A DNA stretch of 64,000 nt, from assembly GCF_057098645.1 (NCBI RefSeq), contig NZ_CM169472.1; one strand, written 5' to 3'. Position numbers: made by a program. Numbering within the stretch: the stretch's first letter is position 1; each line of letters starts with the position of its first letter. Shown in pieces: positions 28,601 through 34,600 of the stretch.

Positions 28601-31600
28601 CCAAACGGTAAGTTAGCGTCAATTAAGGTATGGCTGTTTACCCACACCGTACCAGCCTGTAAGCGATCGCTATATTCCAGAGCCTGGGAGAGATTTTGCG
28701 TCCAGACGCTGGCAGTTAAGCCATATTCCGTGTCGTTTGCCAGTTGTAACGCCTCTTCTCCATCTGCTACTCGCACCAGGTTAACCACCGGACCAAACAC
28801 CTCTTCACGAGTTAAGCGCAATTTAGCATCGGGATTAACCACCAGCGTTGGCGCAACATAATACCCCTCTCCGGCTGGTCCACTCGACCCGCGAATCAGT
28901 TCTGCTTGCTGTGCCTGCGCATCGTCAAGGAATGAACGCACTTTGTCGCAGTGCGCACGAGAAACCAAAGGGTTAATCTGTGCAACAGGTGACATCCCCG
29001 GTCCCACTTGCAACGATTTTACCGCCTGCTCAAATCCACTAACCAGCGTGTCAAACAACGGCGCTTCAATATAAATTCGCGAACTGGCGGCGCATACTTG
29101 CCCCTGATTCAGGAAGCTTCCGGTCATCAAGCCTTCAATAACCCATTGCGGATCAGCATCTTTTAATACAATTGCCGGGTTTTTACCGCCCAGTTCCAGC
29201 GTTGCACGCGTCAAGCGATCTGCAGCAGTTCTGGCAATACCTTTGCCCGTCGCGGTTGAACCGGTAAAACTGATTTTCGCGACATGAGGATGTGACGTCA
29301 GGGCCGCGCCGCATACAGCACCTGACCCGGTGACGACATTAAAAACGCCATCAGGAATACCTGCCTCGCTGGCCAGTTCCGCCACGCGCAACATCGTCAG
29401 TGGCGTGGTTTCCGAAGGCTTAATCACGATTGAACAGCCTGCAGCCAGTGCTGGCATCACCTTCCACATACCAATCATCAATGGGAAGTTCCACGGCACA
29501 ATTCCCGCCACTACGCCAACCGGCTCTTTACGTGTCCAGGCCTGATAGCGCGCCCCCTGGGGTAAGGGAATCGACAAGTCCAGCGTCTTACCCGCAATTT
29601 TGGTCGTTAACCCGGCAGTATAACGCATCCAGTTCAGCGTACAGCCCACTTCAAAAGCACGGGAAATGGCAATTGACTTGCCTTGCTCCAGGGTTTCCAG
29701 TTGCGCCAGCTCCTCACTGTGCTGCTCAACCAGATCGGCAAAACGTAGCAGGATACGTTCACGCTCTGCGGGTAATCGCCCGGCCCAGCGACGCGAGACA
29801 AAGGCCCGCCAGGCAGACATTACTGCGTTATCTACATCCGCTTCGTTGGCATCAGCAGTTGATGCAATTTCTTGCCCGGTTGCCGGATCAAAGATCGCTA
29901 ACCGTTTTTCACTTTGTGCGGGGCCAGGACGACCATCAATATAAAGACCGTGTTGACGATCGAGAAACTGTTGGACCTGGCTTAATACTGCTACATACGG
30001 CTCTGTCATCACTTTTCCTTATTATTTACCCAGTGTGATTTCAGTGTACGCAGCGACAAGAAAAGTCACTTTTTTCGCTGTGACATTCGCTTTGTCAGCT
30101 GTGACAAGCTCCGCAAATCGTGACAATAACCGCTTATGCCTCTATGCCTGACAAGACTTATTTCCTATAGTCAGGCTCATTAGCTTCGTTTATTGCAACA
30201 CAAATGCAACAATAAAAATACATTTCACAGAGCGACAACGTGCCATGAACCCCGCAGTGGATAATGAGTTTCAGCAGTGGCTTTCCCAAATCAATCAGGT
30301 ATGCGGAAATTTTACCGGACGCCTGCTGACTGAGCGTTACACGGGTGTACTGGAAACGCATTTTGCCAAAGGACTAAAGCTGAGCACCGTGACAACCAAC
30401 GGGGTGAATTTATACCGCACCTAGCAGGAGGTAAAAGGCAGTGACGATGCCTGGTTTTACACCGTTTTTCAGCTTAGTGGTCAGGCGATAATGGAGCAGG
30501 ATGAGCGTCAGGTGCAGATTAGCGCAGGCGATATTACGTTACTCGATGCCTCACGACCCTGTTCGCTTTACTGGCAGGAGTCTTCTAAACAGATTTCATT
30601 ACTTTTGCCACGCACTCTGCTGGAACAATATTTTCCCCATCAAAAACCTGTCTGCGCAGAGAGACTGGCTGCTGACTTACCTATGGTGCAACTCAGTCAT
30701 CGCCTGTTGCAGGAGAGCATGAATAACCCGGCACTTTCTGAAACAGAAAGTGAAGCTGCGTTACAGGCGATGGTGTGTCTGCTGCGCCCGGTACTTCATC
30801 AGCGGGAATCTGTTCAACCTCGTCGTGAACGTCAGTTTCAAAAAGTGGTTACGTTGATAGACGATAATATTCGCGAAGAGATATTACGCCCGGAGTGGAT
30901 AGCCGCAGAGACGGGTATGTCAGTACGTAGTTTGTATCGAATGTTTGCCGATAAAGGTTTGGTGGTCGCGCAATATATTCGTAACCGTCGTCTCGATTTT
31001 TGTGCAGATGCAATTCGCCATGCCGCAGATGATGAAAAACTGGCAGGCATTGGCTTTCATTGGGGATTTTCCGACCAGAGTCATTTTTCAACGGTGTTTA
31101 AGCAACGCTTTGGGATGACGCCAGGCGAGTATCGACGTAAATTCCGCTAACTAATTCGCGTTGCATGTACAGCAACGCGAATTAGTTAAAACAGATATTT
31201 GACTATGCATTTTTCAAGGCGAAAGGCAATTTGACAGGAGTTTTTTTAATATTCACCTTGTTTCAGGAAAATAGATCAATCGCCTTCTCCTGTAGCGTTA
31301 TCCCGATAGTGCGGTTTTGCTATTAAAATTTTCGCACCCATTTACCGTTTATCCCTTGTACATATTCCCCCGGTTTAGCCCGAGCTACGAGCTTTTGCCC
31401 GGCGAGTTTCGCGATATCATCTACCGACACATTATTTTGCTTTGCCAGTTGTTGGTAACTCGCTTTACGTTCGGCATTAATGTCGGTTACTAATTTCTCT
31501 GTTTCAGCATCCGTTTTCAGCGCAACCAGATAACCATAAAATGTTTCCCCGACCCGCCCCTGAGTTCTGGCTTCATCCAGAGTCAATGCCATTACATTGC

Positions 31601-34600
31601 TGCTTACCAGCCCAACAAGAAACGCACAAAGAAGTAATGTTTTCTTCATCATCGCCTCAGAAAAGATCGCTACGAGTTTCAAGCAGCCCTTCGACATCTT
31701 TGTCTGCCTTGATGATGATCTCATGCTCAATTTTAACGTTCATATTGATAGTGATCGGTTCCTTAGGTGCAGCGACTTCAATGCGAGGCGTACAGCCAAC
31801 CAGCATAAAAGATGACGTCAACGCAGCCAGTAAAATTTTCATTGTTTTTCCTCACACTCTTTTCCTTGCGGACAGTCATTTCCCGGCAGACGTGCGTTCT
31901 GCTCCAACCATGCCTGGAGATTATCGCCAAAGCGTAAACTGCGCCACAGCGTAAAAATATTCTCTTCATGATGGTAATTAAGGTTTACCGTACCGCTTTT
32001 ACCATCAACGCGACTGGTACCTGTAATGTTGGCCTGCATGGTTAATAAACCGAGATTATCTAAATTAATATTTGTCGATGAACGGCTAATTTCCATATAG
32101 CGCAACCAGTTAATTGCTGAACCCGCAGTCATATTGTCTTTCACCACCGCATCTGCGGTGTCTTTATCCAGCCGCAAGGTCATTGGCCCGCTATTTGCCA
32201 GCCAACCATCTTTCACTATCCATTTTTCGTTGTTTAGCCATAACGGCAATGCACCACTAAATGCCCCGGACATGGCGAATTGTTTCGGATTGACGGCGCT
32301 AACCAGTTCGCTGGATGAGAGATTATTCAGCCGCAACAGCGCCGGGTCATGTTGCGGCATACGTAATTGTTTCATCAGCACGTTACCGCCTAACACATCG
32401 ACGCTAACATCAGTCAACAGCAATGGTTCTTCTTCAGTCCACGGATAACGCCCTTGCAAATCAGCCGTAATATTTTTCGCTGTCACCAGATTAATCACTT
32501 CGGCAATTCGCAACGTAACGGGGCCGCGAGTCCCCAGATGCCAGGCTCCATCGGCAAAACGGAAAGGCAGGACAAAATCGACACCGTTAACCTGATTATC
32601 TGGCATCCAGGCACTACCGCCTTTCAACACGCCGTGCCCTCCCGCGCGGAATCCTTGTTCAGGCGCAGCAGAAAATGCAACCTGAGCATACAGTTCACCA
32701 TCGCGTAAGTTCATCTTCCAGTCGGGTGGCACCAGCGGCTGGAATACAGTCAGTGATTGTTTAGGCCACCAGGCGTTACCGCGCAGACGAATACCGTCCC
32801 AGCGACCATTTACCCGAACCGGGCCAATCTCACCAGCATGTAAATCGCCTTTAAAGAGGAAATACGTCGGATCGTGCCCATCGACGCTAAATTTTAAGGT
32901 TGATGGCGGTAACACACTGCCGCCAGTGAACAGCGTTTGCCCGGCGTCCAGTGACAGCGCGCCGCTGAAGGAGGGATGCTGTGCGTCACGTACCCAGACG
33001 ACGGGCTTGTCGAGAATTAATCGCGGCTTTTCTACCGTCATCGTACCGTATTGTAACTGGTCGAAACCGGTGGAGAGATCGGTCAGCGTAATCGTGCTGT
33101 CATGCCACTCACCTTTTCCTGCGACATCCCAGGTGGCATTCATCGGTGTAAAACTCCCTTTTCCCCAGTAGCGCCACTGCCAGCGGCCAGCGTCAGGGAG
33201 AAAATCATTCGCCAGCCCATCCATATGCAGCACGAAATCGCCCAGTTCATTTTCATGCGCCTGCAAAATGGCCTGCAAACGTCCGTCAACACCACGTTGG
33301 GTGACTTTTACACCCGCTAAAGGCCAGCGGATTTCATCGATGTCCAGCGAATCGATGACTCTTCCCTTTGAACGAAGTAACGCGCCTGGCTCAAAGGTCA
33401 GCGTTGGGTCAGACAGACTTCCACTTACCTGCGCAGGTAAACGGGCATATAAAATGAGGTCCGCCTGTTTCGCTTCACCGGTCAGCTGCAGAGGCAGCTG
33501 GCTGTTATCCATGCTTAATTTTCCTGGGCCAAAATTAAGCACCGCGTTGCCCTTACCCGCTTGCCCCTGGGTCAGCACACTCAGTCGTCCGCTGACCAGA
33601 GCGTTCTCAAGCCCTGCCTGCCAGTTGTCGACTTTGACACCCAGTCGGCCACTCAAAGGAAAACCTGCATACGGCCAGCTCCAGCGACCATCGCTTACGG
33701 TCAATTGTTGACGAGTAATTTGCCACGGCAAATCGAGCAACGGATCGCCGTTATCCCGTGCCAGCACAATCAATTGCCCGCTATTTTCCTGCCAGTCCAG
33801 CTCGGCATCCACCAGTGACGGTTCCTGCGGCAAGTTTAACGTCGCAGTAGCATGACCACTTACAGGAAGTCCATCCGGCACTAGCGGCATAGTAAATTCC
33901 CCCACCAGTTTAACCGGCGGCTGATTTTCAAACGCGACGACATCCAGTTCGCTGACTGTAAGTTGTTGCCCTTTCAGCTGGCCTTGAAATTTAACTTTTT
34001 CGCCCTGATAACGCAGTTGCTGGATATCAGAGGTTAATGCGAGAGAGAGTTTTCCCTGCCATTCCTGCCAGGGAGAAAAAATCAGTTTATCGATATTGAT
34101 CCAGGTGTTAGGCAGCATGGACTGCCACTGCGCGAGGGTTTTTGGAGCAGCTGGCGATTGCTCCGTCTGCGGCAATTTCGCCAGACAAGCAGAATCAAGT
34201 TCTACCGTGCCGACGTTCAATAACCAGCGGCTGGGATGTGAAAGGCTGGCGTTGGTGATATGCGCAAGCTGACAATCTCCCACCAGATAACGGAGATCGG
34301 GAATGATTAAACCTTTACGCGTAATGCGTGGGCTTTCATCTAATGCAATACGTGTCCCGAGCGGTAGCCAGATGCCCGCCAGCGTGGGAACCCACAGCCC
34401 GAGCGTCATCAGCAGCGTCAACGGCACAAGAATAATCAGTAATAACAGCGCGAGAACGGCTTTATATTTACCCAGCATGGGTAGTTAATATCCTGATTTA
34501 GCGAAAAATTAAGCATTCAATACGGGTATTGTGGCATGTTTAACCGTTCAGTTGAAGGTTGCGCCTACACTAAGCATAGTTGTTGATGAATTTTTCAATA

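Follow-up and report, generated by a model that had tools for sequence, protein, structure and literature searches.

An intact ydbH-ynbE-ydbL operon of the ordinary type on an O145:H28-type Escherichia coli chromosome

The route by which phospholipids reach the outer membrane has long been a gap, and the YdbH-YnbE-YdbL system represents one of three redundant routes and therefore a possible antibiotic target. The literature on this bridge (PMC8593681, PMC11126948, PMC12447247, and bioRxiv 10.64898/2026.03.16.712125) raises a simple question about its genes in a 64,000-nt stretch of contig NZ_CM169472.1 (assembly GCF_057098645.1), hereafter the window: is the operon complete there, and does it differ from the characterized one in any position that matters? 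The analysis described below indicates an ordinary E. coli ydbH-ynbE-ydbL operon on an O145:H28-type chromosome, intact and almost certainly functional (probability of about 0.95). Published work already shows that the products of these genes form a protein bridge from one membrane to the other, with a probable part in supplying the outer membrane with lipid, and there is no novelty at the present locus; the core operon is present in the window as a normal copy, which adds nothing to the lipid-route story.

Both the list of open reading frames and the raw sequence place the three genes on the minus strand in the order ydbH (31839-34478), ynbE (31657-31842), and ydbL (31323-31649), an arrangement that matches the annotation in O145:H28 strain RM9872 and in E. 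coli K-12. An intact operon at 31323-34478 had been proposed in an earlier note on this DNA, and the reading frames together with family profile matches bear this out; that note was likewise correct in identifying the genes, in describing YdbH as AsmA-like, and in linking it to phospholipid transport. The overlap of stop and start codons that it described holds for the ydbH/ynbE junction (4 nt), but not for the ynbE/ydbL junction, where ydbL begins 4 or 7 nt past the stop; this spacing on one strand is that of an operon. Of 5,426 complete E. coli genomes, 5,409 contain the locus at no less than 80% coverage, and the DNA here differs by one base from O145:H28 genomes over 3.5 kb, although no complete genome identical to the window was found.

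The ydbH product (879 aa) is an AsmA-like protein with a predicted inner-membrane anchor and a predicted long β-groove in the periplasm. It matches the YdbH-like family PF11739 over profile positions 1-892 of 893 (E = 7.8e-290, 965 bits, cut-off 26.3) and the YdbH equivalog profile NF007971 of NCBIfam with 1400 bits (cut-off 824). Its N-terminus is hydrophobic at approximately residues 7-38, where the AlphaFold2 model (mean pLDDT 85.5) predicts a helix at 3-37, then about 55 strands in succession (residues 42-840) and a further helix at 841-862. No relative was detected among the sequences of solved structures, whether with the protein alone or with a 43-row profile, and fold searches of the solved structures gave weak matches to LptD, ApoB100, and β-barrels and nothing else. 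The one cross-family match within clan CL0401 was to DUF748, at an insignificant E = 0.066 (E = 5e-5 for the Yersinia orthologue); the assignment of YdbH to the AsmA-like clan rests on Pfam curation and PMC8593681. The latter work (mBio 2021) demonstrated that YdbH, TamB, and YhdP are mutually redundant, the three being collectively essential with lipid-homeostasis phenotypes, and that in K-12 ydbH is synthetically lethal with tamB plus yhdP. The tamB and yhdP genes lie outside the window.

The 61-aa product of ynbE is an outer-membrane lipoprotein of family PF13617 (E = 3e-16, 59.3 bits, cut-off 25.8). Its lipobox L14-V-G-C17 is followed by T18 rather than Asp, and the cysteine is kept in 148 of 150 family representatives. 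The strand core I30-I38 lies in the segment P29-I-T-I-N-M-N-V-K-I-E-H-E41, which is identical to K-12 and nearly invariant among the same representatives; indeed, residues 17-51 as a whole are the same as in K-12, among them those of the strand for which double-proline mutants are dead. The C-terminal helix ends in S-D-L-F61, in keeping with the ending [LI]-F. When the chains were fused and the rows naturally paired, AlphaFold2 predicted a strand at YnbE 30-37 and a helix at 46-61, in agreement with the published complex model as far as secondary structure, the feature compared, is concerned.

The third gene encodes a 108-aa periplasmic DUF1318 protein (PF07027; E = 2.8e-31, 108.3 bits, cut-off 27) with a signal peptide at residues 1-21 ending in V-M-A21. 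Its start corresponds to that of K-12 (31649); an alternative ATG at 31652, chosen by PGAP, yields a 109-aa form, and the open frame from 31323 extends to a far-upstream TTG (135 aa). Mature YdbL is identical in 86 of 87 aligned residues to PDB entry 28oj ('Probable chaperone-like protein YdbL'), the sole difference being A55T. All residues mutated in published work are present, namely L24, R28, E35, Y40, N58, E60, R61, Y65, L68, N72, I79, K86, L87, R90, W104, and K107.

The roles of the two small proteins go beyond the candidate accessory factors proposed in the earlier note, which undersold them. YnbE is the genetically required outer-membrane partner that extends the YdbH groove and can be cross-linked to the C-terminus of YdbH in vivo, and YdbL acts in a chaperone-like manner (PNAS 2024, PMC11126948), binding the C-terminal helix of YnbE directly according to NMR, native mass spectrometry, and the crystal structure 28oj (bioRxiv 10.64898/2026.03.16.712125). 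The two checks suggested there, prediction of how the three proteins assemble and synthetic-lethality tests within the AsmA family, are already in the literature (PMC11126948, PMC8593681).

The ydbH/ynbE junction (31839-31853, minus strand) consists of a Shine-Dalgarno sequence GAGGA (31849-31853), a 6-nt spacer, and ATGA (31839-31842), where ynbE starts on the stop of ydbH. Coupling of the two genes by termination and reinitiation has been measured in K-12, where the region from -99 to +30 suffices (Nat Commun 2019, PMC6728339); here this region is one synonymous base off K-12. At the ynbE/ydbL junction (31647-31659, minus strand) the stop TGA (31657-31659) is overlapped by GAGG and followed by ATG codons at 31650-31652 and 31647-31649, and the spacer again differs from K-12 by one base. 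The divergent intergenic region between ldhA and ydbH (34479-34685), the presumed site of the ydbH promoter, is the same as in K-12 in all 207 bases; a consensus scan detected no sigma-70-like site in it, and a scan for promoters and terminators over 31100-34750 gave as many sites as shuffled sequence did, so that neither element was placed. A candidate bidirectional terminator, a perfect 17-bp hairpin at 31148-31188, lies where the ydbL and feaR genes converge, approximately 134 nt past the ydbL stop and beginning on the feaR stop codon. The minus-strand fold of 31130-31330 reaches -56.5 kcal/mol (z = -4.95); the U-tract of the hairpin is weak, and the terminator scan made no call there.

Loci from 80 species were located with a YnbE profile. 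In 78 of them ynbE is preceded by a YdbH-like gene, the stop of which is at most 200 nt from the codon of the lipobox cysteine in 77; the two genes overlap by 4 nt in 47 loci and by 1 nt in six. The ydbL gene is found directly downstream of ynbE in 69 loci, the gap being typically 4-14 nt. The C-terminal [LI]F of YnbE is present in all 69 loci with ydbL and lost in all 11 without it, a pattern that lends independent support to the YdbL-YnbE interface of the literature and indicates lineages naturally devoid of YdbL. The YdbL profile detected no DUF1318-like frame anywhere in these 11 loci; by eye, most of their downstream frames look spurious, and one resembles an aldo-keto reductase.

In comparison with the K-12 operon (b1381-b1383), the layout is unchanged: genes of the same length in the same order, with the same junctions and the same upstream region. 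The DNA is 98.7% identical (41 of 3,156 nt differ), and protein identity amounts to 99% for YdbH, 98% for YnbE, and 99% for YdbL, with eight amino-acid changes in total: A120S, A196T, L351V, I493V, R535H, and K803N in YdbH, E52G as the sole substitution in YnbE, and A55T in YdbL. None affects an experimentally characterized residue; judged by sequence comparison, all the differences fall at variable positions and off every residue tested in published work. In particular, the YdbH cross-link sites W791 and W857 and gain-of-function sites T303, G305, G308, and G456 are the same as in K-12, and the possibility of a YdbH substitution at such a site was rejected, as no position coincides.

The proposed sequence of events follows the K-12 work. 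A single transcript, the operon status of which comes from the literature and fits the junctions, would start in the ldhA-ydbH intergenic region and carry all three genes. The ynbE gene would be translated only by ribosomes that end on ydbH and restart at ATGA by means of the GAGGA Shine-Dalgarno sequence, as shown in K-12 with the sequence kept here, and such reinitiation would tie the amount of YnbE to that of YdbH. In the model, YdbH would be anchored in the inner membrane through its N-terminal helix, and its β-sheet groove would extend about 180 Å into the periplasm. Lipidated YnbE in the outer membrane adds its I30-I38 strand to the last YdbH strand, probably as stacked multimers, and so completes the bridge from the inner to the outer membrane, as genetic and in vivo cross-linking work in K-12 shows. 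YdbL binds the YnbE helix K45-F61 and curbs runaway multimerization, and free YdbL is removed by DegP, as shown by in vitro and genetic evidence in K-12. Phospholipids may then travel in the hydrophobic groove, a transport step that we infer and for which TamB and YhdP offer redundant routes.

This last step leaves room for a different job. The bridge could be real and yet serve as a tether or an outer-membrane assembly factor, as first proposed for TamAB, rather than in bulk phospholipid transport: PMC11126948 itself states that biochemical evidence of lipid transport by YdbH is lacking, the predicted length of YdbH falls short of the periplasm (about 250 Å), and work in Pseudomonas aeruginosa suggests that further partners may exist. 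We consider this reading unlikely, since the redundancy of YdbH with TamB and YhdP, with their joint essentiality and lipid-homeostasis phenotypes (PMC8593681), the predicted continuous hydrophobic groove resembling that of eukaryotic repeating-β-groove lipid transporters, and the fact that YnbE is no longer needed when YdbH is fused to the C-terminus of YhdP in a form long enough to reach across the periplasm all speak for transport. A more local doubt concerns ydbL, which might be expressed from its own promoter or by independent translation and not together with the other two genes of the operon. It does not overlap ynbE, cells contain far less YdbL than YdbH or YnbE, and 11 of the 80 species have no ydbL at this position. 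However, the gap is just 4-7 nt, with GAGG overlapping the ynbE stop, the tight junction is kept in 69 species, promoter- and terminator-like sites occur at shuffled frequency with no minus-strand site between ynbE and ydbL, and the low YdbL level is due to DegP degradation, which makes separate expression highly improbable. A lack of co-transcription or of interaction with YdbH, named earlier as what would refute the operon, is contradicted by the ydbH/ynbE coupling (PMC6728339) and by the conserved gene order here.

An intact sequence could also conceal an altered function, in which E52G, R535H, or both weaken the interplay of YnbE with YdbL or of YdbH with YnbE and thereby change the amount of bridge. 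Residue 52 lies inside the helix K45-T56 that occupies a positively charged pocket of YdbL, where an acidic residue is lost and glycine disfavors helices; the clade-specific E52G may thus loosen the grip of YdbL on YnbE and shift the balance between multimerization and bridge assembly, and R535H could add to this effect. Both alleles are rare: the exact G52 61-mer, a marker of the O145:H28 clade, occurs in 25 of 5,008 matching complete genomes and the R535H 61-mer is near-private (one of 5,355), while the exact YdbH protein of the window is absent from a 15 billion-protein collection. Nevertheless, position 52 is among the least conserved of YnbE (D31, E30, A19, Q18, and N15 in 150 representatives, with S also common), and E52G is stably maintained in O145, being found in thousands of sequenced isolates (5,052 blocks of the collection). 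The YdbL contacts of most weight lie near the extreme C-terminus of YnbE, which is unchanged in the window. Position 535 of YdbH is variable as well (R26, S13, T9, Q7, and K5 in 74 orthologues) and sits in the turn G534-x-D-P537. Both the functional change and the loosened YdbL grip behind it are therefore very doubtful, and a normally functioning operon is preferred. YdbL A55T and YnbE E52G as a compensating pair were rejected: T55 is carried by most E. coli variants read (12 of 14 E. coli/Shigella cluster variants), whereas G52 is found in about 25 complete genomes. As a natural variant of the YdbL-binding helix fixed in O145:H28, E52G may serve specialists.

Among known systems, the E. coli paralogues TamB-TamA and YhdP share with YdbH the architecture predicted for it, an N-terminal inner-membrane anchor and a long β-groove, and are redundant with it (PMC8593681). 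YdbH is shorter than TamB and YhdP, and no sequence similarity to these paralogues was detectable here. The outer membrane is reached by YdbH via a 61-aa sheet-extending lipoprotein, by TamB via the β-barrel TamA, and by YhdP via its own C-terminal helices, and of these systems YdbH alone has a dedicated periplasmic modulator, YdbL. In P. aeruginosa, PA5307 (ydbH) and PA5306 (ynbE) are the counterparts, with a very divergent YdbH (24% identity over one sixth of its length, a published figure); YdbL is not discussed in that paper. The eukaryotic repeating-β-groove proteins Vps13 and Atg2 and the Lpt bridge share the principle of a continuous hydrophobic β-groove between two membranes, although a sequence relationship to YdbH is not detectable and the Lpt substrate is lipopolysaccharide.

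The neighboring catabolic genes, with which the intact operon had been contrasted in the earlier note, are in a mixed state. The contrast stands for feaR (in-frame stop at 30425-30427), tynA (W669* at 28182-28184), and the paaG to paaK genes, which are deleted except for an 85-aa PaaK remnant at 19045-19299; it fails for feaB, paaA-F, paaZ, paaX, and paaY, which are intact in the window. Identity of the window with strain RM9872 was rejected, since feaB and paaC, both broken in that strain, are intact here, and an indel separates the two sequences.

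The ydbH-ynbE-ydbL locus (window positions 31323-34478, minus strand) is an ordinary core operon that is already known. Its 3.5-kb region differs by one base from many E. coli O145:H28 genomes; of 5,426 complete genomes of the species, 5,409 contain it at a coverage of at least 80%. The coordinates and lengths of the three open reading frames given in the earlier note agree with the ORF list: ydbH (31839-34478) encodes 879 aa, ynbE (31657-31842) 61 aa, and ydbL, which ends at 31323, 108 aa from the K-12 start at 31649, or 109 aa from the ATG one codon upstream that is the PGAP start. 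The presence and identity of the operon were confirmed by these ORFs and by matches to the Pfam families YdbH-like (E = 7.8e-290), YnbE-like lipoprotein (3e-16), and DUF1318 (2.8e-31), as well as by an NCBIfam equivalog match of 1400 bits for YdbH. YdbH has a hydrophobic N-terminus, the lipobox of YnbE (LVGC17) is followed by Thr, and YdbL carries a cleavable signal peptide.

The overlapping stop and start codons initially ascribed to the operon are present at the ydbH/ynbE junction, an ATGA shared by the ynbE start codon and the ydbH stop codon, and not at the ynbE/ydbL junction, where the ydbL start lies 4 or 7 nt past the TGA and a GAGG straddles the ynbE stop. Where ydbH and ynbE overlap, strong termination-reinitiation coupling has been measured, which requires a Shine-Dalgarno motif and for which the region from -99 to +30 suffices (Huber et al. 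2019, PMC6728339). In the window this region is one synonymous base away from K-12, and the intergenic region between ldhA and ydbH shows no difference from K-12.

A search with a profile built from 73 YnbE sequences yielded 80 loci, each from a different species; in 77 of them a long ORF on the same strand ends no more than 200 nt from the codon for the YnbE lipobox Cys. The upstream ORF was recognized as YdbH-like by tblastn; eight distant loci of Oceanospirillales type were missed by this search, and Pfam identified the ORF as YdbH-like in six of them. The ynbE start and ydbH stop overlap by 4 nt in 47 of the 80 loci and by 1 nt in six, and ydbL directly follows ynbE in 69, usually after a gap of 4-14 nt. 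This conserved gene order, which is independent of the literature, supports co-expression of the three genes. In one further locus of the 80, that of Yersinia nurmii (L087), ydbH lies about 1 kb upstream of ynbE, and the otherwise conserved overlap is broken by a gap (3972-5000 of that locus) containing an opposite-strand gene for a GyrI-like/Cass2 effector-binding domain.

The role suggested for the operon in the earlier note, with the two small proteins as candidate accessory factors of an AsmA-like protein, is supported and has been overtaken by the literature, where the function is published. Outer-membrane lipid homeostasis requires the AsmA-like proteins YdbH, TamB, and YhdP, which act redundantly and are essential as a group (Ruiz et al. 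2021, PMC8593681). YnbE multimerises and can be cross-linked in vivo to the YdbH C-terminus, its multimerisation is restrained by YdbL, and in an AlphaFold-Multimer model the strand I30-I38 of YnbE is predicted to extend the YdbH groove (Kumar et al. 2024, PMC11126948). According to a recent preprint, the YdbL structure has been solved, its interface has been mapped with the C-terminal helix K45-F61 of YnbE, and free YdbL is degraded by DegP (De'Ath et al. 2026, bioRxiv 10.64898/2026.03.16.712125). Phospholipids would move along the YdbH groove, a step for which all accounts still rely on inference.

The AlphaFold2 model of YdbH (43-row alignment, mean pLDDT 85.5) has an N-terminal helix (residues 3-37) and a C-terminal helix, with about 55 strands in succession between them. 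We also predicted a fused construct of YdbH 640-879, YnbE 17-61, and YdbL 22-108 joined by linkers, using 24 naturally paired rows. In the secondary structure of this construct, YnbE residues 30-37 are predicted as a strand (pLDDT about 63) and residues 46-61 as helical (up to 85), and the YdbL part is predicted confidently. The secondary structure predicted for the YnbE strand and helix agrees with the published complex model. Fold and profile searches of solved structures returned neither TamB nor eukaryotic repeating-beta-groove proteins, and the basis for placing YdbH in this group is therefore the curated Pfam assignment together with published work.

Comparison of the 80 loci revealed a perfect association between ydbL and the end of YnbE. 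The C-terminal [LI]F is kept in all 69 loci with ydbL, forming the last two residues in 68 of them, and is lost by substitution, truncation, or C-terminal extension in each of the 11 loci that lack a DUF1318 frame (Fisher p = 1e-12, the 11 loci representing roughly eight lineages and hence few independent events). Absence of ydbL refers to the two 5-kb flanks of ynbE, which occupies approximately positions 5001-5190 in most of the retrieved loci (L011-L090). The ydbL-less loci include those of Pectobacterium, Brenneria, Tatumella, Rosenbergiella, Phytobacter, Pseudescherichia vulneris, Erwinia endophytica, and two Enterobacter species. The covariation is consistent with the interface model as presented in the 2026 preprint, whose interface, functional-analysis, and Discussion sections do not describe the pattern, nor did a term search of that text find it.

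Of the 3,156 nt of the operon, 41 differ from K-12, and there are eight amino acid changes, namely A120S, A196T, L351V, I493V, R535H, and K803N in YdbH, E52G in YnbE, and A55T in YdbL. All changed positions are variable across the respective families, and none of the eight falls on a residue with published functional data (the cross-link sites W791 and W857 and the gain-of-function sites T303, G305, G308, and G456 of YdbH; the strand I30-I44 of YnbE; sixteen mutated residues of YdbL). YdbH R535H is the sole base setting the window apart from O145:H28 genomes; its 61-mer occurs in only one of 5,355 complete genomes, that of an unrelated strain, and no copy of the exact YdbH protein was found in a large protein collection. 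The E52G change in YnbE (window 31688, codon 52, GAG to GGG) serves as a marker for the O145:H28 clade. Among 5,008 complete E. coli genomes, 25 contain the exact 61-mer, although the protein is abundant in sequenced isolates of this clade and occurs in over 5,000 blocks of the sequence collection. One could suppose that this lineage-specific substitution tunes YdbL binding; this is unlikely, since few positions in the YnbE family are as poorly conserved as position 52. Of the 14 cluster variants read, 12 have Thr at position 55 of YdbL, and thus the K-12 residue is the less usual one; A55T is also the sole difference over 87 aligned residues from the YdbL crystal entry recovered by sequence search (PDB 28oj).

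The contrast drawn between the intact operon and its broken catabolic neighbours holds for feaR, tynA, and the deleted paaG-paaK genes, whereas feaB, paaA-F, paaZ, paaX, and paaY are intact. The feaR gene (30245-31150, plus strand) has an in-frame stop at 30425-30427 that O145:H28 genomes share; there too the gene carries a pseudogene annotation. The primary-amine oxidase gene tynA (26178-28451, plus strand) carries the nonsense change W669* (TGG to TGA, 28182-28184), whereas it is intact in C325 and RM9872, the two O145-type genomes compared. The phenylacetate cluster retains an 85-aa C-terminal remnant of PaaK (19045-19299, minus strand) between paaF and paaX. Some sister strains have different lesions: in RM9872, feaB has Q150* and paaC is frameshifted, whereas both are intact in the window, where feaB (28510-30009, minus strand) adjoins feaR.

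Elsewhere in the window, an intergenic 173-bp segment between pdxI (ydbC) and paaY (17193-17365) is the exact reverse complement of the C325 sequence, and no continuous alignment across it was obtained with any of 5,205 matching complete E. coli genomes. Since the segment begins 2 nt upstream of the pdxI start codon (ATG), the 5' region of pdxI faces away from its gene. The segment lacks flanking inverted repeats and may represent a genuine private inversion, a misassembly, or an edit. An IS3-family element (8800-10117) with 29-nt terminal inverted repeats, orfA (9733-10059), orfB (8846-9736), and an ALIL frameshift pseudoknot (9662-9778) splits ynbD into 7897-8988 and 10065-10601; in C325 an IS3-family element instead adjoins a truncated ydcF, a gene that is intact in the window. 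The uspF-ttcA interval, which holds an nleC-bearing prophage remnant in RM9872, is free of prophage here. Three small RNA genes were identified at Rfam gathering scores: MicC (40291-40411, minus strand), FnrS (45222-45339, minus strand), and McaS (48717-48812, plus strand).
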